From a virus, in the IMG/VR virus record IMGVR_UViG_3300037067_006209, positions 1,252 through 65,251 of that record: DNA of 64,000 nucleotides. One strand, written 5' to 3'. Positions within the stretch are counted from its first letter, which is position 1. Every line of letters begins with the position of its first letter. Positions 10,853 through 36,325 of this stretch are shown in pieces. The notes below the pieces were generated by a model. That model saw only the letters and a list, made by a program, of their open reading frames with translations, made no database searches and was not told the origin of the DNA. The translations under genes were made by a program, and so were the position numbers.

Positions 10853-11055
10853 AATTTGCTAAAAATAATATTATGAAATCAAAAACTTTAGGCATATGTA
10901 TGCAATGCGGTAAATTAACTAATTTTATTGAAATATGTTCAGAAGGAAGACTTTGTTCAGATGAATGTGAAAATGCATGGTATGATAGATATAATAAATC
11001 TATAAGTAATTTAGAATAGAAACCTAATTTGCTTTAATTAATAAAAAGGAGCGTT

Positions 11056-16954: not shown

Positions 16955-17077
16955 AACAATTTTGTCACACACTTGTAATATGATAATTAGAGTAACAAAG
17001 AGTATGCGTGAGTAATTGGAAGTAATAAATTATCAATTAATGAATGAAAACGCTGATTTATCGCATATTGAAAAGAG

Positions 17078-17506: not shown

Positions 17507-17522
17507 TTAAGGAGATTATTAT

Positions 17523-17825
17523 ATGAAAGCAAATAAGAAAACTTTGATGGCAGTAAAAAGTTATTTGGAGAATAAAGAAGGTTGGGATTTAGACGAATTA
17601 ATTTCAGAGATGGTACACAGTACAAAACTCCTAAAACATAAAGATATGGGAGAACATACGCTATCTATGGATGAATGTGGGATTGAATGGGATGGTGATA
17701 ATATTTGTCTATTGGAGGATTTTGTTGAAAGTTATACAGATAAATTTATTGAAGGTATTTGTAATATCTTAGATTCATTTGTTGACGAAGATATAGATTG
17801 TTATCTCTATAACGAGGAAGAATAA
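17523..17825 (+). CDS. Acidic hypothetical protein
   Basis: AAGGAG RBS; D/E-rich. Confidence 0.6.
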   Translation: MKANKKTLMAVKSYLENKEGWDLDELISEMVHSTKLLKHKDMGEHTLSMDECGIEWDGDNICLLEDFVESYTDKFIEGICNILDSFVDEDIDCYLYNEEE

Positions 17826-17869
17826 TTTAAATTGTGTTCACTAATTAATAATAAGAATGGAGAATAAAA

Positions 17870-18337
17870 ATGGATAACCAAGAATTGATATGGGTAACTA
17901 AAGAACAAGCAAAGATATTTAAGGATTTAGATTCAGAATCTAATCAAAAGAATTTTGTTGATGAGTTAATTACAAGAAGAAAAATTGACATACAAAATAG
18001 TATTGAATGTTTAGACGATGATTTACTTAGACTAAAAGCATTTGCTTTAACTTATAAAACAGAACTTAAAAAGGTTTATGAGGAACAAGATAAAGCACTT
18101 GAAGAATTATGGGAATCTCACGATGTAAAAATTTATGAATCAAAGGAAAAAATTAAGCAATTAAAGCCAGAACTTCAGTCAATTACAAATCAGATTAATG
18201 AAGTTAATAAAGTTATGAATGATGTTTCTACGTATAATATTGATAAATTAATTGAAGTTGTTCATAAAGTTAATAATATGTCTGATAATGATAAGAAACT
18301 TATGACTGATTTAATCAATTTAACTCAAGTAAAATAA
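17870..18337 (+). CDS. Coiled-coil hypothetical protein
   Basis: Heptad-like K/E/L pattern. Confidence 0.6.
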   Translation: MDNQELIWVTKEQAKIFKDLDSESNQKNFVDELITRRKIDIQNSIECLDDDLLRLKAFALTYKTELKKVYEEQDKALEELWESHDVKIYESKEKIKQLKPELQSITNQINEVNKVMNDVSTYNIDKLIEVVHKVNNMSDNDKKLMTDLINLTQVK

Positions 18338-18351
18338 ATAAAAGGAGAGCT

Positions 18352-18786
18352 ATGGACAATATAGAAAAATTCAAACAAGAATATATGTGTGAGAGGAAAC
18401 CCAATAATACGGCTTTGAATTCAACTGGTTTATGTTTATTGCATATATATAAAGAAATTCATAAAAACTGCTTATGGATACATGAGCAAATGGGAGTAAA
18501 TCCAAATGAAAGATTAGATGTTTTGAGTCATATAATTAATCAAATTTGTCATGAATTAGAAATAAATAGTGAAAAGATATTTACTATTTCTCCTTCAGGT
18601 AGATTAAAACCTAATCTATTTGAGAGATATATTGACAAAAATGACATACCAAAACTTTATAAAGATGAATATAAAATAGTTTGGGATAGGTACAGTCAAC
18701 TATCAGCAGAATATAACAAAAGAGAAGAAGAACGTGAAAAAGAAAGATATAATGATTCTAATTATACTTTCACATTTTTTAAATGA
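18352..18786 (+). CDS. Hypothetical protein
   Basis: AAGGAG RBS. Confidence 0.6.
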   Translation: MDNIEKFKQEYMCERKPNNTALNSTGLCLLHIYKEIHKNCLWIHEQMGVNPNERLDVLSHIINQICHELEINSEKIFTISPSGRLKPNLFERYIDKNDIPKLYKDEYKIVWDRYSQLSAEYNKREEEREKERYNDSNYTFTFFK

Positions 18787-18847
18787 AAAACGTGTTTTAT
18801 TCAGAATTGTTATTAAAATAATTTATATAATAGAAGGAGTTAATTAT

Positions 18848-19618
18848 TTGTCTAATAAAAAATATAATGATGTTCATAGAATTAATGAACAAGATTTAGA
18901 AGAAAAGCAATGTAAAAATTGTAAAGAATGGCTATTAATGAATAATACATATTTTAATATAGTGAATAAAAAGAAAGATAAATTTAATGACAGATGTAGA
19001 ATATGTCAAGATATCTATCAAAAAATTTATTATTCTAAAACTGCTGATAGGCAAAGAGAAAAGGCTAATAAAAGAAGATTGGAAAAACTACCTGAGATTA
19101 CTGAATATTTTTTACAGTATTATCAAGACAATAAAGAAACCATGAAAGCAAAGAACAAAATATACAAAAAGGAACGCCCTGATTATTATAAAGAACTAAG
19201 TAAAAAATTTAGGAATTCGGAACATGGTCGTGAGAGATGTAAAATTTATAATAAAAAGCATAAAGAGAAAAAACACCAAGTAACTGAAAAAGAATGGGAA
19301 GATTGTAAAAAGTATTTTAATCATAAGTGCGCTTACTGTGGACTACCAATTGAAGAACACTATTATACTAGAAATAATATTACAAAATTAGGAGATTTTC
19401 ATAAAGAGCATGTTGTAGATGATGGAAAGAATGATTTGCGTAATTGCGTTCCAAGTTGTGGTTCATGTAATAGTAGTAAAAGAGAATATTCTTTACATAC
19501 ATGGTATAACCCTAAGAATCCTATTTATGATAGTGAAAGATATCATAAACTGTATATGTGGATTAGATATGACCATAAAAAATATATAAAGCAGAAAAAA
19601 TTAAAACATTCAAAATAA
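18848..19618 (+). CDS. HNH endonuclease (paralog family A)
   Basis: CAYCG...KEHVVDDGKNDLRNCVPSCGSCNSSK; GAAGGAG RBS with in-frame TTG 18848. Confidence 0.85.
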   Translation: MSNKKYNDVHRINEQDLEEKQCKNCKEWLLMNNTYFNIVNKKKDKFNDRCRICQDIYQKIYYSKTADRQREKANKRRLEKLPEITEYFLQYYQDNKETMKAKNKIYKKERPDYYKELSKKFRNSEHGRERCKIYNKKHKEKKHQVTEKEWEDCKKYFNHKCAYCGLPIEEHYYTRNNITKLGDFHKEHVVDDGKNDLRNCVPSCGSCNSSKREYSLHTWYNPKNPIYDSERYHKLYMWIRYDHKKYIKQKKLKHSK

Positions 19619-19733: not shown

Positions 19734-20645
19734 ATGTTAAAAACAAAGTATGAAGAGATTGTAAATGTTCCGTCAATAGGAAAGTCAGAGAACCCAATAT
19801 TGATGAACGAACTATTAAAACTTGCCAATGTAGAACAGTTAACACCAGCAAGTAAAAATCCAGAAAAAGTTTTGGTTATAGGAATTGATGTGCAACAAGA
19901 TTTCATGGACAATGGAGCATTGGGAGTAGGAGGAGCTAATAAAGATGTTGAAAATTTTACAAAGTTTATTTATAACAATGTAAATGAAATTTCTCAAATA
20001 GCTGTATCTATTGATACACATACTCCATTCCAAATATTTCATCCTTGTTGGTGGGTAGATAGTAATGGGAATAATCCCCCACCATATACTGCAATTACAT
20101 TAGCAGATTTAGATTCTGGAAAATGGATGCCTGTAGTTAATCCAAAAGCAAGTAGAGAATATGTTGAACATCTTGAAAAGGATGGCAAGAAAGTATTAGT
20201 TATTTGGACATATCATTGTTTGCAGGGTACAAGTGGTTGTTCTTTGGAAAATCAATTTGCTAATATGGTTTACTTCCATTCAGTAGCTAAAAAGACAATG
20301 ACATTGAGACTTGTAAAAGGTCAAGACCCTTTATCTGAAATGTATGGAATTATAAAGCCTGAATACGACACTAAAAATTACATTAATATTGATTTTCTCA
20401 ATAAGATTGAGCAATTTGATAAGATTATAATTGGTGGAGAAGCAAAGAGCCACTGTGTAATGGAATCAATTAAGCAGATTCTTGAATATTATCAGAACAA
20501 ACCAGAAGTTACAAAGAAGATATTTATACTTGATGATTGTATGTCTTCTATACCAACTTTTGAAAAGCCAACAGAAGATGCTTTTAACAACTTTAAGAAG
20601 CAATACAAAGTAAATATAATTAAATCAATAGATTTGAAACTATAA
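19734..20645 (+). CDS. Nicotinamidase/isochorismatase-family cysteine hydrolase
   Basis: IDVQQDF, DTH..FH, WTYHC, KG, GEAKSHCV. Confidence 0.85.
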   Translation: MLKTKYEEIVNVPSIGKSENPILMNELLKLANVEQLTPASKNPEKVLVIGIDVQQDFMDNGALGVGGANKDVENFTKFIYNNVNEISQIAVSIDTHTPFQIFHPCWWVDSNGNNPPPYTAITLADLDSGKWMPVVNPKASREYVEHLEKDGKKVLVIWTYHCLQGTSGCSLENQFANMVYFHSVAKKTMTLRLVKGQDPLSEMYGIIKPEYDTKNYINIDFLNKIEQFDKIIIGGEAKSHCVMESIKQILEYYQNKPEVTKKIFILDDCMSSIPTFEKPTEDAFNNFKKQYKVNIIKSIDLKL

Positions 20646-23773: not shown

Positions 23774-24307
23774 ATTATTAAAATAATTAATTATTGGCTG
23801 CATTTTAAAACAATAACTAAACATAAATGGTATGTATTTAATGCCTGCAAAGATTGTGGAATTGTTTGGCGTGGTATTAAACATGACTTGTCTAAATTCT
23901 CTGTTAAAGAGTTTATTTCAAGTGCTAAGTACTTTCAAGGGAATAGTAGTCCTATAGATGCTGAAAAGATAGCTAAAGGTTATTCTATTGCGTGGCAAAA
24001 TCACAAAGGACACAATACCCATCATTGGCAATATTGGTTAGATAACAATGGAAAAGAAATAATTCCTTTGAAAATGCCTTATAAAGATTTAATTGAATTG
24101 ATATGTGATTGGATTGGAGCAGGTAAAGCATATAATAAAGGAAAGTGGACTCAAGAAGAACCTTGGAATTACTGGTGCAAGAATAAAGATAAGATGTTAT
24201 TTAATCAAGATACTTATATCTTTATTAATGAAACATTAAGGTACATAAAAGATTATGGATGGAGTAATTTTAGTTATACTATAAAAAAGAAAAATTGGGA
24301 GTATTAA
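23774..24307 (+). CDS. DUF5662-like HD-fold protein (probable ATT start)
   Basis: HKWYV..HDLSKF..HKGHNTHHWQYW..CDWIGAG; AGGAG RBS at 23764. Confidence 0.7.
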   Translation: MIKIINYWLHFKTITKHKWYVFNACKDCGIVWRGIKHDLSKFSVKEFISSAKYFQGNSSPIDAEKIAKGYSIAWQNHKGHNTHHWQYWLDNNGKEIIPLKMPYKDLIELICDWIGAGKAYNKGKWTQEEPWNYWCKNKDKMLFNQDTYIFINETLRYIKDYGWSNFSYTIKKKNWEY

Positions 24308-24308
24308 T

Positions 24309-24590
24309 ATGAGTAGAATATGGGAGCAATGTGTTAATTCAGTTGATTTATGTAAAGATATAGGTTGTGATTATATATTTTCATACAAACAAGGTGGATT
24401 TGGATTGATGCTTATTAAGGATGAAAAATGGATTGGGTTTATAGATGATTACATAAATATCCTTGGTGATGATTTTATAATTAATAAGATTAAAATATAT
24501 AATAATGAAGAACTATCATATAAACTTACACAGAAGTATATGGGTAAAATATTAATAACATGCAAATGTATTGATAATATTCAGTCATAA
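24309..24590 (+). CDS. Hypothetical protein
   Basis: ORF abutting upstream gene. Confidence 0.5.
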   Translation: MSRIWEQCVNSVDLCKDIGCDYIFSYKQGGFGLMLIKDEKWIGFIDDYINILGDDFIINKIKIYNNEELSYKLTQKYMGKILITCKCIDNIQS

Positions 24591-24655
24591 TATAAACAGC
24601 ATAAAACAATGATTTCGTATTAAAATAATATAAAACCTGAAAGGAGGAATATTAT

Positions 24656-24931
24656 ATGTTTAAAGAAGGTTATGTTGCTAATTTTTATGGCATGGGATAT
24701 CAAATTAAAGACATTTTAAAAGAAGAAGGAATTAAAGCACCAAAAGGATTTTTTGATTATGAAAATTTTTATGAAATGTTTAAAGTAGTAGATGATAGTC
24801 AAGAAGATTTTGTTGGAATATGGTTTGCTAATCTTGAAGAAGATATGTTTATTGATAATGATGGCGATTTAGTTAAAGAAACTCCTAATAAATTTTATGT
24901 AGATAGAGAAGACGTAACTATATGGGGATAA
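24656..24931 (+). CDS. Acidic hypothetical protein
   Basis: AGGAGG RBS. Confidence 0.65.
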   Translation: MFKEGYVANFYGMGYQIKDILKEEGIKAPKGFFDYENFYEMFKVVDDSQEDFVGIWFANLEEDMFIDNDGDLVKETPNKFYVDREDVTIWG

Positions 24932-25057
24932 TAAAATTTGTTCAATGTAATTAATTAAAACTTAACGTGGTGAGATTCCACGATAATATATTGACATAGA
25001 GCGAATTACTATTCGCAGAAATGCTTTATATAAAATAAATATATTGAGGTGTATGTT

Positions 25058-25414
25058 ATGGACAAAATTTTATAAGTTAAATATGGAACTATCTATAATA
25101 AAGAAATGACATTCGGTATAGATAATATGGCTGTTATTATAGATAAAGATGGTGATTCAGATGAGTATATGGATAAATACTATACTGATATGATATCAAA
25201 ATACAAAAAAGCAGGACTAGAAGATATATGTGATAATTTAGTTTATATTAAATTTGATAGATATGATGGTGTATTAACCATAGAGGAGATATGTACATTT
25301 GTTAATTATATGTTGATGTGTTCAGTTAATGGAAATAAAATTATGAATATGTTAAATATGTCTGCTAATGAAATTAAAAGTGAAATTGCTAGATTACAAG
25401 AAATTGGTTATTAA
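25058..25414 (+). pseudogene. Hypothetical gene with in-frame TAA at codon 6 (25073)
   Basis: GAGGTG RBS and ATG 25058 are in frame with ORF 25106-25414 but separated from it by TAA. Confidence 0.5.
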
Positions 25415-25438
25415 CTATTATAAATATAAATTAAACGC

Positions 25439-25467
25439 TTGACAATAATAAAATAATATAGTATACT
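25439..25467 (+). promoter_or_regulatory. SigmaA promoter
   Basis: TTGACA-17bp-TATACT. Confidence 0.7.
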
Positions 25468-25484
25468 AAGGATATGGTTAAGAG

Positions 25485-25688
25485 ATGTGCGAAATGAAAG
25501 GTTATTCACCAAGAGAATTTAAGATGATATTGGATAAGAACGGTTGGAGAGCAGACCATAGTAAGGGAAGTCATTGTACATATATTAAAAATGGAATGAA
25601 TTATCATGTAACATTTAGTGATAAAGGTAAAGAATTGCCAAGACCTTTGATTAAACGGATGATAAAGGAAGCAATGTTAATTGTTTAA
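25485..25688 (+). CDS. HicA-like mRNA interferase (dsRBD fold), no adjacent HicB seen
   Basis: ILDKNGW...KGSH..Y..VTF...ELP..LIK.MIKEA. Confidence 0.7.
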   Translation: MCEMKGYSPREFKMILDKNGWRADHSKGSHCTYIKNGMNYHVTFSDKGKELPRPLIKRMIKEAMLIV

Positions 25689-25942
25689 TTTGGTATTAAT
25701 AAAATAAATTTATTATAAAAGGAGAGTATTATGAAAAAATTAGTAATCACAGATGGGGTAAACTACATAGGATAAGATTTAAGTTTAAATGATGGACTTG
25801 GTGAGTACATAACAACACAAAACTTAGATGAGGCAAAGAATTTTAAATGGGCATGGTTATTTGCTTCAAAGAAGTTAATTTTAAATGGAATTAGATTTAT
25901 TTTTGGTAATGATTATAAATATAATTCAGTGGAGGTTAAATA

Positions 25943-26314
25943 ATGGAAGATTTTTCAGTAACAAAGATTGTGGTAGGTATAATTTTGATTCTAGCTTTGA
26001 TATTTGGATTATGTTGGATTGGTGGAGCATTTGATATATTCTTTGATAAAACAATTGGAGTAGAAAAAGCAAATGTACAAAGAGAAAAGTTTGAGCAATC
26101 CGCAAGTTATGTAAAAGGAATGGTAAGTGATTTAGCTAAGTATAAGTACGAATTTGAAACAGAAAAAGATACTACAGCAAAGAAAGCTATTATTGATGTG
26201 ATAATTTCAACTTACGCAGATTTTTCACCAGATAAGATTGATGATGCAAGTACCAAAACTTTCTTAAAGGATATTAAAGACGGTAAATATAATAATTTAG
26301 AGGAGAAAAAATAA
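25943..26314 (+). CDS. Membrane-anchored protein
   Basis: N-terminal TM helix, GGAGG RBS. Confidence 0.7.
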   Translation: MEDFSVTKIVVGIILILALIFGLCWIGGAFDIFFDKTIGVEKANVQREKFEQSASYVKGMVSDLAKYKYEFETEKDTTAKKAIIDVIISTYADFSPDKIDDASTKTFLKDIKDGKYNNLEEKK

Positions 26315-26315
26315 T

Positions 26316-26858
26316 ATGGAAAGAATTTTAAGTTTAGGACTGATAATGATTTTAAGTCTGTGTATGTTAACAGGATGCTATGAAGAATCTGCTACAGTAG
26401 ATAAACAACAGCAAGCACAACAGGAACAAATTTTACAAGAAATAAACAATCAAACAGGTCTTCCAAGTGTAACGAGTGGGACTGAAAAGAAAAATATGAA
26501 GAGAATAATTGAAGAAAGAGATAATAGTAAACTTGTTTGTTATGTTTACACTAAAAATACAATGACAGGAAAATATATCTTTGAAGGTAAATCTATAGGA
26601 TATCCTTTGCCATATGCAACACAATATACTAATCCAGAAAGAGAAGTTAATCATGGAAGCTATGGACAAATCACTCTTCCACAAGCAGACCCTTCGGGAT
26701 TATTTTCACCTGCAAGTGCAGATGCCACATGGGTTATGATGATTAATGAAGATACTGGTAAAACCGAAGTTTAATATTATGAAGATAAATTAAATGTTAC
26801 ACAAACAAAAAAAGCGAAAAGATTATGCGAAGAGTGGTCATTACCATCAAATTATTAA
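26316..26858 (+). pseudogene. Lipoprotein gene with premature in-frame TAA (26772-26774)
   Basis: Lipobox LTGC; frame continues 27 codons past the TAA (YYEDKLNVTQ...) to a stop just before the next ATG. Confidence 0.6.
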
Positions 26859-26859
26859 T

Positions 26860-27108
26860 ATGAGCGTTTTTGCATACACTATCATTTTTATAAGTATTCC
26901 CATTGTATTAGCTATTATATATGACATAAATAAAAAGTATAAGAAATCTAACGCTATTAAAATATCTAAACAAAAAGAAAAGGATTCACAATGGGAATAC
27001 TTCATATCTGAAAAATATAATGAAATGAAAATATGGGATTCTAACATTGAGTATGAAGAAGTTAAAAAGATTGTATTAGATACTGTTAAAAAGGAGCGAA
27101 GAAGATAA
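26860..27108 (+). CDS. Small membrane protein
   Basis: N-terminal hydrophobic helix. Confidence 0.5.
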   Translation: MSVFAYTIIFISIPIVLAIIYDINKKYKKSNAIKISKQKEKDSQWEYFISEKYNEMKIWDSNIEYEEVKKIVLDTVKKERRR

Positions 27109-27419
27109 TGATTAAATATGCAAGTATTGATGGTTATAAAAACTTAGGAGAAATAGAATTGTTTTCTCATTTGTATCAATTTATGGAGAAAGGCAAAGAA
27201 ACTCCTATGACTATTTTAATTCATGCTTATGAATGTGAAACAAAATTCTTTAAAGGATATGTATTCAATAATACTAAAACTTATAAGAGTATTCCTTTAA
27301 CAGAATTAGAGATTAAAGAAATTGAGAAGTATACTGGAACAGGACAACAAGTAGACTTTTTAAAGTTTATAATTGGTACTATAGTAGAAGATTATTATAA
27401 AGATTTTATGTGTGCATAA
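27108..27419 (+). CDS. Hypothetical protein
   Basis: Translationally coupled ORF. Confidence 0.55.
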   Translation: MIKYASIDGYKNLGEIELFSHLYQFMEKGKETPMTILIHAYECETKFFKGYVFNNTKTYKSIPLTELEIKEIEKYTGTGQQVDFLKFIIGTIVEDYYKDFMCA

Positions 27420-27434
27420 AGAAGGAGATTACAT

Positions 27435-27698
27435 ATGTGGATTAGAACTCAAGACAGAAAATATTTATGTGAAGTTTCTAAAAAGATTGGAATCATTCAT
27501 GACAATGAAGATACTGATATACCAGTGGGTATATTTAATTATGATTCTTCATTAACAATGTTAGGTGAATATTCCACCAAAGAGAGAGCATTAAAAGTAT
27601 TAAATGAATTACAAGAAAGTTTTATGAAGTTTGAAACATATTCAAATAAAAAGATGCTTAGTTTTAATGAGACAGTATATATAATGCCATTAGAATAA
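27435..27698 (+). CDS. Conserved phage hypothetical protein
   Basis: MWIRTQD..LGEYSTKERALKVL..YIMP pattern. Confidence 0.65.
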   Translation: MWIRTQDRKYLCEVSKKIGIIHDNEDTDIPVGIFNYDSSLTMLGEYSTKERALKVLNELQESFMKFETYSNKKMLSFNETVYIMPLE

Positions 27699-27926
27699 TT
27701 GCTATGAAATATATGTTCTATTACATAGGGAGATTATATCATGAATAATGAATTGTTTGTATTAAGATGTACACAATGTGGAGAAGAAATTTATATCCCA
27801 AATAAAAAAGGGAACACAGAAATAGAAGGAATAGAAATTTTCTTGGAAATGAACGATAATATAAGAATAGAATGTGATTGTGGTAATAAAATTATAATTT
27901 AATATTATGAGGGGGAAGTATATGAT

Positions 27927-28166
27927 ATGAGGTCATTGGAACAAATAATAGGCGATGATTTAGTAAAACTACATATAAAAGAACTAGAAAATAATATAGA
28001 ACAACTTTATGGCACTGAAGATACCTTTGTATGTTTTACTATTCAAAAAAGATTTGGTCAAGAATATGAAAAAAAGATAATAAAAGAAATAAGTTATGCA
28101 CAGTATACATATGAAATTGATAACGAAAATGATTCATTTAAAAAATTAAAAATATACATTGGATAG
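27927..28166 (+). CDS. Hypothetical protein
   Basis: GAGGGGG RBS. Confidence 0.5.
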   Translation: MRSLEQIIGDDLVKLHIKELENNIEQLYGTEDTFVCFTIQKRFGQEYEKKIIKEISYAQYTYEIDNENDSFKKLKIYIG

Positions 28167-28196
28167 AAGAAACATTTGATGATTAAGGAGAATTAT

Positions 28197-28364
28197 ATGA
28201 TTTCATGGTTAATTATAAAACTTTGTAGTTATGAATACAAGAAACAAAAGAAGAATAATTCATTATTTACTATTTTTTATATTAAAGGTACAGGAAAAGA
28301 TTATCCAAAGTCTTTATTATATACAGAAGTAGAGCGTGTTGCGAAACAAATGGATAATATTTGA
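28197..28364 (+). CDS. Small hypothetical protein
   Basis: AAGGAG RBS; bracketed by sites 28163 and 28364. Confidence 0.5.
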   Translation: MISWLIIKLCSYEYKKQKKNNSLFTIFYIKGTGKDYPKSLLYTEVERVAKQMDNI

Positions 28365-28381
28365 TGAAATTGACTTTTTAT

Positions 28382-28453
28382 TTACTATTTTAAAGTAATT
28401 TGAGGTATCTTTGCTAATGCAAGTTTAACCAACAAGCATGTAAATTAATGCTT
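28382..28453 (-). ncRNA. Structured RNA copy 1 (candidate guide scaffold)
   Basis: Hairpins AAGCAT/ATGCTT, TTGC/GCAA, TTACT/AGTAA; core AGATACCTCAAA; minus-strand TATAAT at 28466-28461 just upstream. Confidence 0.65.
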
Positions 28454-28528
28454 AATCAAAATTATAATAGTAATTGTAATAATTTTAAATACTTTTAGTT
28501 TATAATTTGTTTATTAATATAATTTACA

Positions 28529-28557
28529 TTGACATTGTAGCTCAATTAATGTATACT
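28529..28557 (+). promoter_or_regulatory. SigmaA promoter for HTH gene
   Basis: TTGACA-17bp-TATACT. Confidence 0.75.
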
Positions 28558-28630
28558 ATTAATTGTAAGATAACATCTCTTCCCTGTTACTACATAATTA
28601 TATATAATAGCTTATGGGAGAGTGAACATT

Positions 28631-28864
28631 ATGCAAATAAAAATAACCGAAAATAAAATAGAACACCAGATTGAAATATATCGTAAGAAAACTGGAGCAA
28701 CAAAAACTTGGATTGCCGAACAATTAGGAATGACTAAACAACGCATGTATGCTTTATTTAAAGCAGATAATATGATGTTAGATGTAGCATTAAGATTTGC
28801 TGAATTTTTAGAATGTGACATCAAGGATTTGTTTGAATATGAAGTAATTAATAATCGTAACTAA
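28631..28864 (+). CDS. Cro/XRE-type HTH transcriptional regulator
   Basis: TKTWIAEQLGMTKQRMY..ALRFAEFLECDIKDLF. Confidence 0.85.
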   Translation: MQIKITENKIEHQIEIYRKKTGATKTWIAEQLGMTKQRMYALFKADNMMLDVALRFAEFLECDIKDLFEYEVINNRN

Positions 28865-28892
28865 TATTATTTACTTTTTGTAATAAATATTA

Positions 28893-28973
28893 TTGACACT
28901 TTTAAAGTTATCCCTTATAATAGAAAATGTAAGTTAAAGGTTGCAACCATACTTACTTAATTTATTATAAGGG
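28893..28973 (+). promoter_or_regulatory. SigmaA promoter plus RBS-sequestering inverted repeat
   Basis: TTGACA-17bp-TATAAT; CCCTTATAATA (28912-28922) pairs with TATTATAAGGG (28963-28973). Confidence 0.7.
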
Positions 28974-28982
28974 GTGTCGATT

Positions 28983-29423
28983 ATGAAATTAGGTAAAGAA
29001 TGCGAATTAAATCAGTTGTTAAAATTTTTAAACATGAGGTGTGAAGTATCAATAAACTTTCATAATACTAATAATAATTTTATGAGTACATATGTCTATG
29101 AGAGTTTAGATTGTGACATTGGTAAATTCATTCTCTGTTTATTTGATGGTAGAAACCAAACTTTAAACACTAGAATTAATAATGAATTAATCTTAGAAGT
29201 TCGAAATAACTTTGAAGATGTTTATGACGATGTTGTACATATTTATACTGAAAACTTTATCCTATCCATTACTAAATTAGATCAGAAAATTGTCCTTCCT
29301 AAATGTAATCACTGTGGCTGTGAAATAGAACATAATGAGTATTGGTTAAGTGGTGCTTATGGTGATTTGAGATTGTGTGAGAATTGTTCTTATCCATTAT
29401 ATCCAAGTAATGAAGAAAATTAA
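28983..29423 (+). CDS. Hypothetical protein with C-terminal Zn ribbon
   Basis: CNHC...CENC. Confidence 0.65.
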   Translation: MKLGKECELNQLLKFLNMRCEVSINFHNTNNNFMSTYVYESLDCDIGKFILCLFDGRNQTLNTRINNELILEVRNNFEDVYDDVVHIYTENFILSITKLDQKIVLPKCNHCGCEIEHNEYWLSGAYGDLRLCENCSYPLYPSNEEN

Positions 29424-29450
29424 TAATATGAGTAGAGAGGAGGAGTAATC

Positions 29451-30854
29451 ATGGCTACTGAAATGAGAGCAATTAAATTTTATTCTAATAGTAAAACTTC
29501 TACAGAAGATTTTGATAAAGGTATTAATTTTTTAACTGAATGTCGAGAAGTTGAAAATAAATTATTAGAGTATTATTGGAATAACTTTAATGAAGTTATT
29601 AGAGTTAGAACATGGATTGATTTCTATAGTAATAGAATTATGATTACTTCTCCTGCTACTAAATTCCAGCATTACATGCAAATATTATCTATGACCTATG
29701 GTGCATTAAAGTCATTGCAAGAAAATATCATTCAAAAAATCCATTTCAAATTTGAAGATAAGATGCAACAACGCATATACAATTATTGTAGTAAATTTGT
29801 ATTTGATTGGGATAGACTTGTAACTTATATCAATAAGCAGGTTAAAGAGTATAAGAAAAAAGATAAAAAATATCATGAGTTCTTATTAGAAGTAAAGAAA
29901 GTAATTGATAATGAGCAATCGTTTTTAATATTACAGCAAGATATAGAAGATAAATTTTGGGAGCTAAAAAACAAGATAAATCTACCAATAAAGAAATCTA
30001 AGCAAATTTGGGCAAATACCTTTCATACGGTAGACATTGAAAAATATGATGATTATTGGATATTTATTATTGATACCAATAAGTTCATTACCAAACGTAA
30101 AATGGAGAACTTCAGAATAGTAGTGGATATTTCAGATTATCATAAGAAGATACTAGATAAATATACTTTACAAAATACTTTTACTATTAAATTTAATAAC
30201 TATGACAGATTTGAAATCATTGGAGCATACGAAAAAGAGATAAATCACCCAACTCCTAACCCCGTAGATATTATTGGTATAGATATAGGATTAAAAAAGC
30301 TTATTACTTCATCTGATGGAGAGATAGTTGAGCAAAATAAAACTATAGTGAAGAAAGCACAAAAATTAATTAAGAATCAAGCCAATAGACAAAGTTTAGA
30401 AGCACATATGCGCAAAAAGTTAGACGATGAAAAATTTACTTTACCTGATAAGAATTATAAGAAAAAACAAAACAAATTAAGCAGATTTGTTCAGTGTGAT
30501 AACTGTTATAGAATAAAGCAATTTCTTAAAGGTAAAGAAGATACTCATATTATTATGGAGGATTTACAATTAAACGATGCTAAAACATATAGTAAAGAAG
30601 TTAATTACATGTTAAGAAGAATGAAGATTCAAGGTATTAAAAATGATATCCTAAAATACACAAAAGAGATGGGTATTAAAACAACACAGGTCAATCCAAG
30701 GTATACAAGTATTGATTGTCCTATATGTGGAAATAGAGACAAACTAAATAGACAAACACAGGAAACATTTAAATGCACTAAATGTGGTCATACAGATAAT
30801 GCAGACCATAATGCAAGTATTAATATTGAAAATAGATTTTTAAAAGCACAATGA
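29451..30854 (+). CDS. Atypical TnpB/Cas12f-like RuvC nuclease (467 aa)
   Basis: GIDIG, IMEDL, NADHNA catalytic triad; YTSIDCPICG..CTKCG Zn finger; expanded N-terminal region. Confidence 0.88.
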   Translation: MATEMRAIKFYSNSKTSTEDFDKGINFLTECREVENKLLEYYWNNFNEVIRVRTWIDFYSNRIMITSPATKFQHYMQILSMTYGALKSLQENIIQKIHFKFEDKMQQRIYNYCSKFVFDWDRLVTYINKQVKEYKKKDKKYHEFLLEVKKVIDNEQSFLILQQDIEDKFWELKNKINLPIKKSKQIWANTFHTVDIEKYDDYWIFIIDTNKFITKRKMENFRIVVDISDYHKKILDKYTLQNTFTIKFNNYDRFEIIGAYEKEINHPTPNPVDIIGIDIGLKKLITSSDGEIVEQNKTIVKKAQKLIKNQANRQSLEAHMRKKLDDEKFTLPDKNYKKKQNKLSRFVQCDNCYRIKQFLKGKEDTHIIMEDLQLNDAKTYSKEVNYMLRRMKIQGIKNDILKYTKEMGIKTTQVNPRYTSIDCPICGNRDKLNRQTQETFKCTKCGHTDNADHNASINIENRFLKAQ

Positions 30855-30862
30855 GAATAAAA

Positions 30863-30935
30863 AGGTATTTATTTATATACCTGTAGGTTAAGCGTACTTT
30901 AGTACAGATACCTCAAATCACTATAAAATTAGTGA
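30863..30935 (+). ncRNA. Structured RNA copy 2 (candidate guide scaffold)
   Basis: Hairpins AGGTAT/ATACCT, GTAC/GTAC, TCACTA/TAGTGA; core AGATACCTCAAA; begins 8 nt after the nuclease stop. Confidence 0.65.
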
Positions 30936-30978
30936 ATGAATAAAGAGTTCTATTCACATTTAAAAGGAGGATAATATA

Positions 30979-31875
30979 ATTATAGACAAAAAGACAACTA
31001 AAAAGTATAATGATTATAATAAAATTGAAAATGGAGTTAAATATCGAAAATGTAAAGAGTGTGAAAATTGGTTTGAATTAAGTAAAAATTATTTTAAAAT
31101 AAGAAGTAAAGATAAAGAAGGTTTTAATTCTAAGTGTAATACTTGTCAAGAAGAATATAATCATAATAATTACATGAAAGACAGAGAAAATCAAATAAAA
31201 AAGGCACAAGAAAATAGATTAGAAAACTTTGAAACAAGAAAAAAATATGACAAGGAAAGATATTTATCAAATCCTCAAAAGTTTATTGATAATGATAGAA
31301 AGGTTCAGCAAGCTAAACCTGAACATTATAAGAACAAAAATAAGAAATGGAGAAAAGAAAACCCTGAAAGATGTTGCTATCTAAGTTCATTACATAGAAA
31401 TCATGATGTTAATGCAAAAGAAGAGAAAGCAATGTTAACAGTTTTTGATTATTCATGTGCCTATTGTGGTATGAGCCTCAGTGAACATCGTAAGATTTAT
31501 GGTGAGAAATTACATAACGAACATGTAGATGACGAAGGTTATAACGATTTAAGAAATGATATTCCTGCATGTAAGGCTTGTAATTGTGGTAAACATCAAA
31601 GAAGTTTAGAAGATTGGTATCCTCAACAAAAGTTTTTTAGTGAAGAAAGACTACAAAAAATAATTTGGTGGACTACCAAAGGTTATAAGGATTGTATAGA
31701 GAAAAAACCATCATACAGATTTAAACGCAAAAGAGTGTATAACGCTGATAATACATATTTTACACAACATGAATTATGGAAAGTGGATAATAAATGTAAT
31801 TTAGTAGATATAATTTATATGGGAAATAGTAAACAACAATTAAAGAATTTTATTGCTATTAATAATATAATTTAG
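30979..31875 (+). CDS. HNH endonuclease (paralog family A), probable ATT/ATA start
   Basis: CAYCG..EHVDDEGYNDLRNDIPACKACNCGK; frame open to AGGAGG RBS at 30965 with homologous N-terminal CKEC. Confidence 0.8.
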   Translation: MIDKKTTKKYNDYNKIENGVKYRKCKECENWFELSKNYFKIRSKDKEGFNSKCNTCQEEYNHNNYMKDRENQIKKAQENRLENFETRKKYDKERYLSNPQKFIDNDRKVQQAKPEHYKNKNKKWRKENPERCCYLSSLHRNHDVNAKEEKAMLTVFDYSCAYCGMSLSEHRKIYGEKLHNEHVDDEGYNDLRNDIPACKACNCGKHQRSLEDWYPQQKFFSEERLQKIIWWTTKGYKDCIEKKPSYRFKRKRVYNADNTYFTQHELWKVDNKCNLVDIIYMGNSKQQLKNFIAINNII

Positions 31876-31912
31876 TTAAATATTAATTATACAATTTAGA
31901 AAGGATAATTAA

Positions 31913-32269
31913 ATGAAATTCGAGAAAATCATTAATGAATTAATCAAAAAAGAAATTGATTCTGCTACCCGTAAAATGTATGAATCTATGTGTTGTAATG
32001 AATTAGTTAGTTCAACAAGTACATCATCTACATATACAACTGCTAGTTTATCATTAGAAAGTTTTAAAAATATGATTGAAAAGTTAAGACCTCAATATGC
32101 TATTTTACTTAATAATTATATTGAGGATAATCAAATATTTGAAATGGAAAATATATTACCAGATAAATATTATTGTAAAAAGTTATTACTAATAAATCAT
32201 AATTATTATCATATTAAGCTAAAAAATATAATGAATCAATATGGATGTAATATAAAAGTCTATGAATAA
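31913..32269 (+). CDS. Hypothetical protein
   Basis: AAAGGA RBS. Confidence 0.55.
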   Translation: MKFEKIINELIKKEIDSATRKMYESMCCNELVSSTSTSSTYTTASLSLESFKNMIEKLRPQYAILLNNYIEDNQIFEMENILPDKYYCKKLLLINHNYYHIKLKNIMNQYGCNIKVYE

Positions 32270-32281
32270 AAGGAGATAAAT

Positions 32282-32596
32282 ATGAACAAATTTAATACAA
32301 TTGAAGAATATATAAACGATAAAATTAAAACTACTTTTTGTAAAAGTTTTTATCCATCAGCTATATTAACACATGTAGACGGTTCTACATGTGAAAGTAT
32401 TTATAATGTATGTGAAAAATACATATCAGAAAACAAGTTACAAGAGATATATGAAATAAGATGTCTTGATTGTGCTGATATCTTAGGTGTATATGAGCAT
32501 TATGCAGATATACCAGAAGTTTCGGAATGTTTAAAATGTGGAGAAGATGTTAGAAGAATGAACAATGCTATTATTTTATATAAAATAATAAGATAA
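32282..32596 (+). CDS. Zn-ribbon hypothetical protein
   Basis: CLDC..CLKCG. Confidence 0.6.
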   Translation: MNKFNTIEEYINDKIKTTFCKSFYPSAILTHVDGSTCESIYNVCEKYISENKLQEIYEIRCLDCADILGVYEHYADIPEVSECLKCGEDVRRMNNAIILYKIIR

Positions 32597-32607
32597 GGGA
32601 GATAAAT

Positions 32608-32823
32608 ATGAAATTTTTGTTTGGAGACATTGTAGTAATCAATAGAAATCAAATTGGTGTGGTAGTCAAAATATGGAGAAAATCAGCTCTTAATACATTT
32701 GAATATGAAATATATAATAGAATGATTAGTTGTATTGAAACTTATTTGGAAAAAGATATTGAGAGATATAGTGTTAGACATAAATACTTAAATGAAGAAG
32801 AAATAGGATATCAGTGGGGATAA
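32608..32823 (+). CDS. Hypothetical protein
   Basis: GGGAG RBS. Confidence 0.55.
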   Translation: MKFLFGDIVVINRNQIGVVVKIWRKSALNTFEYEIYNRMISCIETYLEKDIERYSVRHKYLNEEEIGYQWG

Positions 32824-32826
32824 TAA

Positions 32827-33024
32827 ATGGATATATCACAAGATATAAAACTAATACAGAAAATAAAGAAAGATTTAATGAGTATTCGAAAAACTATAGA
32901 TTTAAATCCTGATAATTTATCAGTATTCTGTCAAGAAATGAAAAATCAATATATAAAATTAGCTGAAGAACTAGGTAATAAATATGAAAAATTGTCAATA
33001 AAATTAAGACAAAAAATGTTATGA
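32827..33024 (+). CDS. Hypothetical protein
   Basis: Operonic ORF. Confidence 0.5.
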   Translation: MDISQDIKLIQKIKKDLMSIRKTIDLNPDNLSVFCQEMKNQYIKLAEELGNKYEKLSIKLRQKML

Positions 33025-33050
33025 ATTGTTTATTTGGAAAGGAATTGGAA

Positions 33051-33287
33051 ATGAGGATACAAGATATTCAAATAGGTAAATATTATAGATTAAAAAATAC
33101 CAATGGAGAATTTACTCAATATTATGGTTGGGTAAAAGTATTGGATATTTTCAAAAGAGGTCAATGGAATAGTCCCGATAAGACAAAGAGTATTGTAAAA
33201 TGTGAACATACCGTAAATAAAACAGATACATTTGGGTTTATTAGATATTTTAGACCAATGGACTTAGTTGATACAAATGAAAATTAA
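33051..33287 (+). CDS. Hypothetical protein
   Basis: AAAGGA RBS before ATG 33051. Confidence 0.55.
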   Translation: MRIQDIQIGKYYRLKNTNGEFTQYYGWVKVLDIFKRGQWNSPDKTKSIVKCEHTVNKTDTFGFIRYFRPMDLVDTNEN

Positions 33288-33314
33288 TACAAAAGCAAAG
33301 TTAAAGCCGAACAC

Positions 33315-33343
33315 TTGACAAATTATTTTATTAATGCTAATAT
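33315..33343 (+). promoter_or_regulatory. SigmaA promoter
   Basis: TTGACA-17bp-TAATAT with TG extension. Confidence 0.65.
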
Positions 33344-33363
33344 AAGAAAGGTGATACATAAGC

Positions 33364-33582
33364 ATGATTGGATTACAAGAGAATACAGCTAAAGAAATTT
33401 TTAATACTAATATTAATAAGTATGTGAGAGTAAGTCTTATATCTGAAAATGAATTACTTGAAGGGAAGTTAGTTGGTATTAGTTGTAATACATTTATTAT
33501 TGAAGATAAGCATGGATATAGAAGCATGTTTAGATATGAGGATTGTAGATATTTAATATCATTAATACCAGTTAGTAATTGA
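33364..33582 (+). CDS. Possible Sm/Hfq-like protein
   Basis: Helix then V.V.L....LEGKLVG....F.I pattern, 72 aa. Confidence 0.4.
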   Translation: MIGLQENTAKEIFNTNINKYVRVSLISENELLEGKLVGISCNTFIIEDKHGYRSMFRYEDCRYLISLIPVSN

Positions 33583-33608
33583 TTAATAATATAATTTTTG
33601 CAAAACAT

Positions 33609-33637
33609 TTGACAAACAAAAGGAACTGTGTTATTAT
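33609..33637 (+). promoter_or_regulatory. SigmaA promoter for ligase
   Basis: TTGACA-17bp-TATTAT. Confidence 0.65.
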
Positions 33638-33689
33638 AAATGAGTACCAAATAATAAAATAATTTACTTACATAAATGAAAGGAGTTTT

Positions 33690-35660
33690 ATGAGAGAGAA
33701 AATCGAAAGAATACATAAGTTAGTACAGATATTAAATAATGCATGTTACAACTATTATAATCTAAGTAAATCAATAATGGGAAATAGAGAATATAATGAG
33801 CTGTTTGATGAACTAGTGGAACTAGAAGAATCAACTGGAATTATACTCTCCAATAGCCCAACGCAAAGAGCAGGATATAAAATTGTATCTACTTTACCAA
33901 AAGTTAAACATGATATTCCATTATTATCACTTGGTAAAAGTAAAAAGATATCTGATTTAGAAACATGGTTAGGCAATAATGAAGGAATATTAATGCTTAA
34001 AATTGATGGTGGTACGGGTAAGGTTGAATATAAAAATAAATTATTTAACCAATTAAGTACTAGAGGTGATTCAGAAACTAATATTGGAGAAGATATTTCA
34101 CATAATATTAATAGTATTAAAGGTATTCCTTTAAAAATTGATGATGATAATGATATACAGGTTGTCGGTGAAAATCATATGACATTTAAATCATTCAATA
34201 CTGTCAATGATAGCATATTACTTGAAAAAGATAAATATAAGCATCCAAGAAACTTAGCCAATGGCTCTGTAGGTTTACTCGACAGTAAAGTTTGTAAAGA
34301 AAGAAATATAGAATTTTGTGCTTTCAATATAATTAAAGGAAATAAGTTTAAGACTAAAGCTGAACAATTTGAATGGTTAAAAGGTCAAGGATTTAATACA
34401 GTTAAATATTGGATTGTCACTAAGAATGATTTACAAGAGACTATTGAACAAATAATCGAGGATATTCCTAATATTGAGATTCCAATAGATGGACTCGTGT
34501 TAAGTTTCAATAATATAGAATATGGATTATCTAAAGGCAGCAGTAATCACCATCCGAACCATTCTATCAGTTTTAAATTTGAGGATAGTTGGTACGATAC
34601 AAATTACAACTATACAGAATGGAATACTAGCCGAACTGGAAAGATTGTACCTAAAGGTATTTTTACATCAATTAAGATGGATGGAGCAGACCATGATAGG
34701 GCAACACTACATAATTTAGATAGGTTTAGAGCTATGAAATTAGGTCATGGAGATTTCATTCAGACAAGTAAGAGAAACAAAATTATTCCTGCCATTGAAA
34801 ACAATATTACTAGAAGTAATACTGAAGTAATTCCAACTAAATGTCCAGCTTGTGGTGGAGATATAGAAGAAAGATTACTTGTAAATACACATGATTTATA
34901 TTGTTTAAATCCAGATTGTGATGCCAAGTTATTGAAGAAACTAAAACACTTTGTAAGCAAACAATGTTTTAATATTTCTGATATTGGTGAAACTACACTT
35001 GAAACACTCATAGATAAAGGATTCCTTGAAAACTATATAGATATATTCAAACTAAGTAGATTTAAAAAAGAAATATTATCACTTGATGGATTTGCTGAGA
35101 AGTCATACATAAAAATGTTAGAAGCGATTGAAAATTCTAAAAATATTGAAATGTCATCATTAATTACTTCTTTAGGAATAAAGAATGTTGGCTTTGGTAC
35201 ATCTAAAAGAATTGCTAAATATTTTAACAATGATATTAGTAAGTTTATAAATTCAACTAAGTATCCTATGAGTTTTGCAAGTATTGAGGATTGTGGAGAA
35301 ATTACTTCATTAAGTATCTACGAATACTTTAAAAACGAAGAGAATATGAATTTATTTAATGAGTTATTAGAATTAATAACTATTAAGCAGGAAGAAAAGA
35401 AATCTGATAGTAAGCTTAAAGACCTTGCAGGATTAACATTTGTTATCACAGGTTCAGTGACCACCTTTAAGAATAGAGATGAGTTTAAGGAATTAGTAGA
35501 ATCGCTTAATGGTAAAGTTGCAGGAGGAGTCTCATCAAAAACTAATTACTTGGTTAATAACGATGTTACATCAACTAGTGGTAAGAATAAGACTGCAAAA
35601 GATTTAAATGTTGAAATCATAAGTGAACAACAATTTAATGAAATGATAGGGAGGAGTTAA
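33690..35660 (+). CDS. ligA: NAD-dependent DNA ligase
   Basis: KIDG adenylation motif, STRGD, PRNLA.G, DGLV, C4 Zn finger, HhH, BRCT (FVITGS). Confidence 0.95.
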   Translation: MREKIERIHKLVQILNNACYNYYNLSKSIMGNREYNELFDELVELEESTGIILSNSPTQRAGYKIVSTLPKVKHDIPLLSLGKSKKISDLETWLGNNEGILMLKIDGGTGKVEYKNKLFNQLSTRGDSETNIGEDISHNINSIKGIPLKIDDDNDIQVVGENHMTFKSFNTVNDSILLEKDKYKHPRNLANGSVGLLDSKVCKERNIEFCAFNIIKGNKFKTKAEQFEWLKGQGFNTVKYWIVTKNDLQETIEQIIEDIPNIEIPIDGLVLSFNNIEYGLSKGSSNHHPNHSISFKFEDSWYDTNYNYTEWNTSRTGKIVPKGIFTSIKMDGADHDRATLHNLDRFRAMKLGHGDFIQTSKRNKIIPAIENNITRSNTEVIPTKCPACGGDIEERLLVNTHDLYCLNPDCDAKLLKKLKHFVSKQCFNISDIGETTLETLIDKGFLENYIDIFKLSRFKKEILSLDGFAEKSYIKMLEAIENSKNIEMSSLITSLGIKNVGFGTSKRIAKYFNNDISKFINSTKYPMSFASIEDCGEITSLSIYEYFKNEENMNLFNELLELITIKQEEKKSDSKLKDLAGLTFVITGSVTTFKNRDEFKELVESLNGKVAGGVSSKTNYLVNNDVTSTSGKNKTAKDLNVEIISEQQFNEMIGRS

Positions 35661-35662
35661 CT

Positions 35663-35878
35663 ATGAATAATTCAAGTGAATGCTTACAATGTGGGTTAAA
35701 TAATCTAAAGAAAGAATTTGAAGATATAAAATTGAATCATCAAATTGAAGGATTAAGATATAAAACAGTTATTAGTTCAGAAGGGTTTTTATCGGAATTA
35801 ATAATAAATGAATTACCAGACGATATTTTTGTTAATATTTTAAAACATAGAGGATATAAGATAATTAAAGAAATGTGA
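35663..35878 (+). CDS. Hypothetical protein
   Basis: GGAGGAG RBS. Confidence 0.55.
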   Translation: MNNSSECLQCGLNNLKKEFEDIKLNHQIEGLRYKTVISSEGFLSELIINELPDDIFVNILKHRGYKIIKEM

Positions 35879-35920
35879 TAGATGATTAATTTTATAACAT
35901 ATTAAAAGGAGATTAAATTT

Positions 35921-36325
35921 ATGGAATTGGATTATAAAAAGAAAAAGATTCTGAAAAACTTATCAAAGCAAACTATGGAAACAGGTATTATAATGAACGG
36001 TGTTATTGAAACAACCGATTGTTATATATCGGATGTTAAATGGAACTCAAAATATAATGTGTATGAAACACAAGGATTTGTATGGGATGAAATAGGAGAA
36101 GATTATATAGCTAAAGATTCATTAAGATCATCACTAGATTTACACCAAATAGAAAATTTGGCAGGAGATATTGCTATAGGTTTAAATTGTTATGATAATA
36201 AGGGAAAAATAAAAGATATATTGAAAAAATGGACTTATTATGATAGAACAAGGAGAACAAAGAGAAAAGAAGAAGATGATGCTAAAAGTTATCATGAAAT
36301 GGTTTGTTCATATACTGATACTTGA
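35921..36325 (+). CDS. Hypothetical protein
   Basis: AAGGAG RBS; bracketed by sites. Confidence 0.6.
   Translation: MELDYKKKKILKNLSKQTMETGIIMNGVIETTDCYISDVKWNSKYNVYETQGFVWDEIGEDYIAKDSLRSSLDLHQIENLAGDIAIGLNCYDNKGKIKDILKKWTYYDRTRRTKRKEEDDAKSYHEMVCSYTDT

Follow-up and report, generated by a model that had tools for sequence, protein, structure and literature searches.

We report that a 64,000-nt stretch of viral DNA (hereafter the window; positions 1,252-65,251 of the 65,251-nt IMG/VR record IMGVR_UViG_3300037067_006209) contains a 2.6-kb module, or cassette, of three genes, coding for a helix-turn-helix (HTH) protein, a 149-aa Zn-ribbon protein and a 467-aa TnpB/Cas12f-like nuclease, which is bounded by two inverted copies of an element of about 80 nt (28376-28454 on the minus strand and 30862-30941 on the plus strand). 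TnpB is a small RNA-guided DNA cutter and the ancestor of Cas12; it is known as a single-guide nuclease that defends its transposon's own insertion site. We propose that the cassette is a transposase-free TnpB module of the OMEGA type (obligate mobile element-guided activity), Cas12f-like in its nuclease, that carries its guide-RNA scaffold twice. Two outward guide RNAs serving junction-directed cutting of rival alleles would be the mechanism best supported by the sequences, and we put its chances at about even. With a scaffold facing outward at each end and no transposase, TnpB might be able to cut the genomes of rival phages to either side of the position that it occupies itself.

Three paralogous cassettes (c1, c2 and c3; loci L001-L003; 80-85% protein identity) occur in one genome, the complete 167,493-bp phage genome G001, which has terminal repeats, and help to define the limits of the repeated unit. 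Within the window, an inverted-repeat search pairs 28387-28449 with 30867-30929 (63 nt, 79% complementary), and a 12-nt core word, AGATACCTCAAA, is found once in each copy and nowhere else in the 64 kb. Read outward on the minus strand, the left copy consists of hairpin 1, a GGU/ACC helix around hairpin 2, hairpin 3 and the inner arm of an 18-bp boundary site (covariance model match at 28362-28456, minus strand, 89.8 bits). The right copy, also facing outward, starts 8 nt after the TGA stop codon of the nuclease gene, as the original prediction had noted, and is matched by the model at 30860-30955 (plus strand, 101.7 bits; fold z-score -2.68). Both units end, again as predicted, at 18-bp sites of the form ATRRAA-N6-TTYYAT: the left site (28364-28381, ATGAAA-TTGACT-TTTTAT) matches this motif exactly and the right site (30936-30953, ATGAAT-AAAGAG-TTCTAT) with one mismatch, and the inner arm of each (28376-28381 and 30936-30941) is part of the repeated unit. 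Similarity between left and right copies starts at hairpin 1. In pairwise BLASTN comparisons of the four cassettes with their flanks, inter-cassette homology starts at window position 28377 on the left and ends at 30941-30962 on the right, that between the window and c2 stopping at 30941. The letters that had been quoted for the two ends were all recovered at the positions given for them.

The pattern of change in these units supports the earlier claim that they are structured elements rather than plain DNA terminal inverted repeats (TIRs). Between the two copies of the window, compensatory differences occur in all three of the hairpins that had been quoted. A MAFFT alignment of 11 distinct scaffolds from seven loci, not fitted to any model, shows pairing in 93.7% of the cells of the three hairpins, with 12 of 16 pairs changed on both sides; none of 500 shuffles reached any of five measures, and slid controls were 30-43% paired. 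The three covarying hairpins thus stood, but the total did not, as single-sequence folds add a fourth helix, GGU/ACC, which encloses hairpin 2; with all four helices in a model-fitted alignment, pairing is seen in 94.4% of the cells and compensatory change in 14 of the 20 pairs (none of 500 shuffles did as well; slid controls 32-47% paired). Hairpins 2 and 3 have wholly different complementary sequences in the distant loci L004, L007 and L081 and in c3, and the unpaired words GGTTAAGC, AGAYACC and AAT are constant across scaffolds. Covarying helices combined with constant unpaired words are, as far as alignments can tell, the pattern of a protein-bound RNA. The length of the scaffold had been put at 55-72 nt; the conserved unit, from hairpin 1 through the inner arm, comes to about 79-80 nt. 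When the covariance model was run over the window and the whole of G001 (231 kb), it gave eight strong matches, all at the four cassettes, and Rfam gave no match at E <= 1 for the window region and four family loci. The outward orientation places the variable flank at the 3' end of the scaffold, and it is at the RNA 3' end that the guides of TnpB and Cas12 sit.

The scaffold is an autonomous unit of about 80 nt that is essentially intergenic, because in c1 a 65-aa open reading frame (ORF) separates the tnpB stop codon from the scaffold and because synonymous constraint at the 3' end of tnpB is only mild (identical-codon use among identical residues reaches 0.81 over the last 17 codons, compared with 0.55-0.78 in the rest of the gene). 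Two other roles were considered for the repeated units. That the two copies pair with each other over a distance in a read-through transcript, forming an RNase III site, was rejected since the differences between copies preserve the local hairpins and lower inter-copy complementarity; a terminator role was rejected as well, with no terminator-like site in 28200-31200. A twelfth copy of the scaffold (L373, 83.6 bits) shows further compensatory variants and one U-G pair. It lies at L373:10941-11034 on the minus strand (G002 33836-33929), on a 34-kb viral contig that also encodes a tape-measure protein, an integrase and a canonical TnpB; two ORFs are found upstream, one Cys-rich (47 aa) and one LAGLIDADG-like, and no family TnpB is visible on the contig, which ends 516 nt beyond the scaffold, so that one may lie past its end.

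Ten loci of this TnpB family have readable DNA context: the window, L001-L008 and L081. L004, L005, L006 and L008 are near-identical loci with 52-58% identity to the window TnpB, L007 has 47% identity, and L081 lies on a 176-kb contig that was binned as a Bacillota metagenome-assembled genome, yet carries phage genes. The right copy is present behind tnpB in all ten (hidden Markov model search, then a covariance model built from the 11 distinct copies) and ends where inter-copy homology ends. A scaffold of the omegaRNA kind, common to the family, is the best reading of this right unit. Four of the ten loci, namely the window and c1-c3, have the left copy as well. Left and right copies of one cassette are just 67-79% identical, so the duplication is old and both copies have been kept. 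All four left copies lie 6-7 nt behind an outward sigma-70-type promoter (c1, TTGACA-17-TATAAT; c2, TTGACA-17-TATACT; c3, TTGACA-18-TATAAT). The one in the window occupies 28461-28489 on the minus strand, its -10 ending 7 nt before hairpin 1; the -10 that had been predicted for it (TATAAT, 28466-28461) is present as part of TTTAAA-17-TATAAT, of which the -35 is weak. Conservation of the promoter in this position is not expected by chance, because the region around it in c3 is just 42-48% identical to the other cassettes and the promoter is nonetheless kept. We regard the left unit, on these comparisons, as a promoter-driven second copy specific to one subclade.

The nuclease itself (29451-30854, plus strand) matches PF07282 (Cas12f1-like_TNB; E 2.5e-16, 60 bits against a cut-off of 26.3) and, below threshold, PF01385 (OrfB_IS605; 26.3 against 30.5). 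The D-E-D triad that had been described as intact (D278, E370 and D452) is invariant in 26 of 26 family sequences, together with the four cysteines C423, C426, C442 and C445 of the Zn finger. In a search of 5.8 billion proteins, 63 clusters were recovered at E <= 8.6e-65 (query coverage 60-100%, identity 42-100%), followed by a gap to E 1.9e-18, and the matches beyond cover just the C-terminal 40-50% of TnpB; the protein thus appears to belong to a discrete family, and for its N-terminal 260 residues no relatives by sequence could be detected among those proteins beyond the family itself. An AlphaFold2 model (mean predicted local distance difference test, pLDDT, 90) has the WED-REC-WED-RuvC-TNB fold of TnpB and Cas12f. 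Foldseek matches span the whole length of the model, the best being AsCas12f (8j12_A, E 1.2e-18), followed by ISFba1 TnpB (8iaz_A, E 1.5e-13) and ISDra2 TnpB (8h1j_A, E 5.7e-11), with CasLambda matching as well, and a profile of the family finds Cas12f 9nzq among PDB sequences (E 5.6e-23). The earlier placement of the protein with TnpB and Cas12f is thereby borne out. It is apparently an active enzyme of this kind with a family-specific N-terminal half, since the D-E-D triad and the Zn finger are invariant and the model shows the full Cas12f/TnpB fold.

Transposase and recombinase genes were sought in two records, that of the window and the complete G001. Y1_Tnp, Resolvase, DDE_3, DDE_Tnp_IS1595, rve and DDE_Tnp_1 had no match in either, and control genomes were positive in every search; as regards DDE transposases the search covered four families (DDE_3, IS1595, rve and DDE_Tnp_1). 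There is likewise no CRISPR array: 24-36 kb of the window contains no tandem array, the scaffold forms no direct-repeat family, and the 64 kb holds two inverted copies only. The predicted lack of TnpA, serine recombinase and CRISPR array was thus upheld, as was that of DDE transposases for the four families. The absence of Y1 and the inverted arrangement of the ends set the cassette apart from IS200/IS605 elements; the absence of Resolvase, together with the lack of an Rfam intron match in the window region and four family loci, from IS607 elements and IStrons; and the lack of an array beside the effector from type V CRISPR-Cas systems. With DDE-associated TnpB transposons it shares inverted repeats, and neither a transposase of the four families nor a target-site duplication was found.

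The inverted copies could be taken for the TIRs of a non-autonomous cut-and-paste transposon served by a DDE transposase in trans; this would resemble the symmetrically ended solo and DDE-associated TnpB elements of Altae-Tran et al. 2023 (PMC10691335), in which the omegaRNA merely runs through one end. Symmetrical ends and a separate HTH gene are also features of the IS630-linked DDE-6 branch (PMC10691335), and the three paralogous copies in G001 would be natural for a transposon. We nevertheless consider this improbable. Besides the lack of DDE matches, no target-site duplication or flanking direct repeat is seen at any of the four cassettes, whose flanking spacers all differ; a counterpart allele of the cassette (described below) is not empty, having other genes between the same sites; repeats of about 80 nt with covarying helices and a conserved outward promoter are not needed for a transposase binding site; and distant relatives have one copy only.

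The 18-bp sites that bound the cassette are a general feature of these genomes. The window holds 14 exact copies of the motif ATRRAA-N6-TTYYAT, spread over 1120-64000, where 1.46 would be expected, and G001 has 36 throughout its length where 3.4 would be, an enrichment of about tenfold. RNA hairpins were ruled out for these sites, as the arms of 50 exact copies show no covariation, A/C being as common as G/C; they are thus more likely DNA recognised by a protein. The left arm often contains the stop codon of the gene upstream. Of the 37 ends of homology blocks between the window and G001, 11 lie no more than 12 nt from a site (1.14 expected), an excess partly confounded with gene ends. Seven of the eight cassette inner arms end in T, compared with 25% of motif matches in G001, which is a hint rather than a test, the cassette copies being homologous. 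A search with Phage_integrase matched four genes of G001 and nothing in the 65-kb record of the window; these G001 tyrosine-recombinase genes (C1:128612-129109, 19857-20405, 151624-152169 and 110712-110978; L384-L387), one of which lies about 2 kb downstream of c2, could encode the enzyme that acts at the 6-6-6 sites.

At one position the two phages provide both alleles of a cassette locus. Window 16958-17061 is 76% identical to G001 79311-79414, to the left of c1, through the site ATGAAA-ACGCTG-ATT[T/C]AT, and window 18782-19606 is 81% identical to G001 82177-82991, to the right of c1, from the site AT[G/A]AA[A/T]-AACGTG-TTTTAT through an HNH gene. Between the same two sites G001 holds a 2.8-kb TnpB cassette and the window four unrelated genes (17078-18786); the counterpart allele thus extends over 17044-18800 on the plus strand, with sites at 17044-17061 and 18783-18800. 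If the putative guides are taken to start directly after the inner arm, that on the left of c1 matches the window over 16 of 16 nt and that on the right over 13 contiguous nt. Each of the eight putative guides of the four cassettes has a single perfect match in its own genome, which is itself. The expectation that a rival allele should carry both putative targets is thus borne out once.

These observations suggest how the cassette might work. Transcription of both units, binding of the RNAs by TnpB, the point at which the guide starts, a target-adjacent motif (TAM), cleavage and homing are the steps that we infer. The family-wide right copy, just after tnpB, is presumably cut out of the tnpB transcript, and the second, inverted copy at the other end would be driven by its own outward promoter. 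Each RNA would extend past the inner arm through the spacer and the outer arm into the adjoining DNA, which would give it a guide that fits its own junction only. If a relative with other genes between the same two sites infected the same cell, TnpB loaded with both RNAs would cleave it at one junction or at both, and recombinational repair from the cassette-bearing genome would then swap the rival genes for the cassette.

Several observations weigh against this reading, beginning with those on the targets. A single pair of rival alleles was found, and the counterpart of cassette c1 in the window holds four other genes between the sites, so that the cassette-free junction that the original prediction had named as the target was not what we saw. 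The 6-8 nt before the putative targets are much alike in self (GAATGAAT, GAATAAAT and AAATAAAA) and rival (AAATGAAA and CGATAAAT), which leaves self-sparing unexplained. As to the scaffolds, the original prediction had taken homologs without paired scaffolds as a sign against it. Both copies are present in the window and c1-c3, but the L004 group, L007 and L081 have the right copy only (in L004, L007 and L081 no further match exceeds 16.4 bits with search filters off). With three of seven distinct loci lacking a left copy, one RNA is evidently enough for the family, and the possession of both copies is thus a derived feature of one subclade rather than a family property. DNA as AT-rich as this contains many promoter-like hexamers by chance (30 in 3 kb, with 25.2 expected), and the evidence for the left-copy promoter therefore lies in its conservation in position and not in its mere presence. 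On the outward strand 6 G-U and 0 A-C cells occur among 176, in left and right copies alike; this wobble bias speaks for the outward strand, but it represents about 4-5 independent changes and is thus supportive only. Since the hairpins are palindromic, the other strand folds with similar energy. Finally, outside the cassette, too, 7 of 26 block ends lie within 12 nt of a site against about 0.8 expected, so the cassette is one module in a general site-bounded mosaic and could move without TnpB. Overall, the original interpretation is supported in part: it stands in its nuclease, structured ends, promoter, absence of transposase (for the families searched) and array, and boundaries at the sites, but not in its cassette-free target, and the paired scaffolds do not extend to the whole family.

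The main rival explanation takes up several of these points: guiding would be by the right RNA only, combined with general site-based exchange. Here the right copy would be the working omegaRNA. The left one could be a small RNA that acts on TnpB as a decoy or regulator, by titrating it or setting its timing; it could be antisense to the gene upstream; or it could be a duplicate in slow decay. Movement of the cassette would be passive, through recombination at the 18-bp sites as for the gene modules beside it. Distant family members that work with a right copy alone, blocks of other genes that end at sites, the four tyrosine-recombinase genes of G001, the existence of the HTH and 149-aa pair without TnpB, and self and rival arms that are not clearly different all speak for it. 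It has more difficulty with the state of the left copies. These keep four helices through compensatory change, the unpaired words GGTTAA(G/A)C, AGATACC and AAAT, and a positioned promoter in four of four cassettes despite their divergence from the right copies, all of which is as expected for a second RNA bound by the same protein; furthermore, a decoy need not end exactly at the junction. On balance we think this explanation rather unlikely.

The folds could also belong to DNA. The hairpins would then be folded single-stranded DNA or cruciform structures, comparable to integron attC sites or IS200/IS605 ends, for an enzyme that exchanges modules at the 18-bp sites; palindromic stems fold on either strand, G-T pairs are tolerated in DNA too, the units abut the sites, and G001 has tyrosine recombinases. 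However, the unit is tied to tnpB and not to module boundaries, all the strong model matches in the 231 kb being at TnpB cassettes, and other modules have sites without the unit. IS200/IS605 ends, as described in the 2026 review PMC13565253, are direct rather than inverted and need a Y1 transposase, which is absent here, and the positioned outward promoter points to RNA. This possibility appears to us very improbable.

A more specific form of our proposal, an RNA-guided cassette-replacement drive in phages, is possible though doubtful. The 18-bp palindromic sites would present a TAM-like arm on each strand; one outward guide per end would cut both junctions and remove the rival genes, the cassette being copied in by recombination without a transposase; and the variant inner arm AAT[G/A]AAT, seen at seven of eight ends, would be a disabled TAM that protects the carrier. 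If so, TnpB would drive the shuffling of accessory-gene modules among these phages. In the full-text literature searched, with subscription journals and supplementary files outside the search, we found no TnpB with omegaRNA scaffolds at both ends. If the two-guide mechanism is correct, it would offer a natural route to a two-sided, transposase-free gene drive between viruses and would tie the mosaic exchange of accessory genes among phages to RNA-guided cutting; the unusually small self-contained guide scaffold, of about 80 nt and outside the gene, along with a 467-aa nuclease might be of interest for genome-editing tools. The proposal is testable, since the two related phages differ at one locus, where one has the cassette and the other the rival allele, and the sequences of both targets are known.

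Comparison with known systems shows both shared and distinctive features. With the TnpBs of IS200/IS605 elements the cassette shares the RuvC D-E-D, the Zn-finger TNB domain, the WED-REC-RuvC fold and a structured non-coding element directly after the gene at the element end, whose flank would be the 3' guide; like IS1341-type elements, it has no transposase of its own. The role we propose, cutting of an allele without the element, is that shown for IS605 TnpB (PMC10055086, PMC10690162). The cassette differs in having the scaffold twice, inverted, one per end and the second with its own promoter, in the small size and essentially intergenic position of the scaffold, in the two extra genes and the genome-wide 18-bp sites that bound it, and in the N-terminal 260 residues of its TnpB, which lack detectable relatives outside the family. 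Its ends are symmetrical as a result of the scaffold at both, unlike those of IS200/IS605 elements, which PMC13565253 describes as being without terminal inverted repeats; the same review treats homing by TnpB as possible in theory, also in a non-restorative form that enters co-infecting phages.

The DDE-1 to DDE-6 TnpBs of Altae-Tran et al. 2023 (PMC10691335) have symmetrical ends, include solo TnpBs inside such ends and have the TnpB 3' end near the element end; the IS630-linked DDE-6 branch has a separate HTH protein. The cassette resembles these in all such respects, but has no DDE match of the four families in cis or in G001 and no target duplication, and its repeats are long, covarying and RNA-like, with an outward promoter; the family may be among the transposon ends catalogued with PMC10691335. 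Type V-F Cas12f, CasLambda and CasPhi are akin to it in being the best structural matches of TnpB, in the short RNA handle, in the 3' guide that would apply and in the phage setting. The cassette, in contrast, has no CRISPR array, its two inverted scaffolds lie 2.4 kb apart, and its guides would be fixed flank rather than acquired spacers. The proposed cutting of a co-infecting relative near the cassette's own position, followed by copying in, within mosaic genomes, recalls the free-standing homing endonucleases of T4-like phages with their intronless homing and marker exclusion (PMC13565253), and HNH genes adjoin the cassette in the window and c1; recognition by the cassette would differ in being RNA-guided, two-sided and self-updating with the flank.

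The remaining genes of the cassette match what had been described between the copies, Pfam supporting the assignments of the HTH protein and TnpB. The first is an XRE/Cro-type HTH gene (28622-28864, plus strand) of 80 aa from a GTG, with an ATG three codons in; its product matches Pfam HTH_26 (E 4.3e-7) and, weakly, PHROG repressor families. A promoter-like site before it (28529-28557, plus strand; TTGACA-17-TATACT, 11 of 12 matches) is divergent from the outward promoter and is kept in c1 and c2. A second one (28893-28921, plus strand; TTGACA-17-TATAAT, 12 of 12) precedes the 149-aa and TnpB genes, and between it and the ribosome-binding site of this operon lies a palindrome, GGTTGCAACC (28941-28950), which occurs in all four cassettes and is likely an operator for the HTH protein or else a structure of the 5' untranslated region. 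The 149-aa protein (28974-29423, plus strand) has a C-terminal CxxC...CxxC Zn ribbon. It has no Pfam or PHROG family match and only five clusters of relatives among the 5.8 billion proteins; its AlphaFold2 model (pLDDT 79.4) combines a beta-sandwich with the Zn ribbon and has no Foldseek match in the PDB at E <= 0.001. The idea of a diverged Y1 transposase was rejected, with no Pfam match and no His-hydrophobic-His motif by eye. All four cassettes with a left copy have the HTH gene and the small Zn-ribbon gene ahead of tnpB, and the distant loci lack both. A fourth pair of HTH and 149-aa-like genes in G001 (139146-139928; L370:19146-19928, minus strand) stands without TnpB or scaffolds, suggesting that the pair is probably a regulatory module; it is followed by genes that we take, from reading their sequences, to be antirepressor-like and VapD/Cas2-like.

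Other TnpB genes and non-coding elements were seen in passing. The window has a second, canonical TnpB (9585-10715, plus strand; 376 aa) with an N-terminal OrfB-type helix-turn-helix. It is unrelated to the family of the cassette nuclease, their RuvC halves being about 28% identical. GC-richer non-coding DNA follows it to about 10830 and may be its own omegaRNA; a weak model match further on (10947-11035, 18 bits) was set aside as chance or a different RNA. In G005, a 229-kb record, a second family tnpB (C1:1415-2813; L380, L381; L008) is in two pieces with an in-frame TGA, and its right scaffold is the same as that of the intact copy. Directly upstream of the solo family tnpB of L081 lies a GC-rich, probably structured, non-coding stretch of 150 nt (L081:3780-3930) without an Rfam match.

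The record from which the window derives is estimated to be 36% complete; the window has a G+C content of 24-29% throughout, and its plus strand holds nearly all genes. The phage is present at groundwater and landfill sites. No near-identical record was found among 50,697 deposited phages, and scans of metagenomes and genomes yielded distant TnpBs only, L081 excepted. Among the matches listed outside the known contigs, a first pattern scan of IMG/VR gave just one weak model match (25 bits); a tighter one gave one new scaffold, the L373 copy, and a third gave 10 new stretches, none of which matched the covariance model. Contigs from four DNA runs, compared with window 24000-36000, showed no clean cassette-skipping joint, the sides of the listed joints, which were left uncounted, being 20-24 letters long. 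No RNA data set was listed as containing window 28300-31000, a result that has no bearing on expression. An HNH endonuclease-like gene directly follows the cassette both in the window and in c1; it belongs to a family of such genes in the window, each just after an 18-bp site (about 30979-31875, 18848-19618, 52949-53647 and 3729-4397). Judging by similarity, translation of the gene after the window cassette seems to begin upstream of its first ATG, behind a strong AAGGAGG and possibly at a non-standard start codon.

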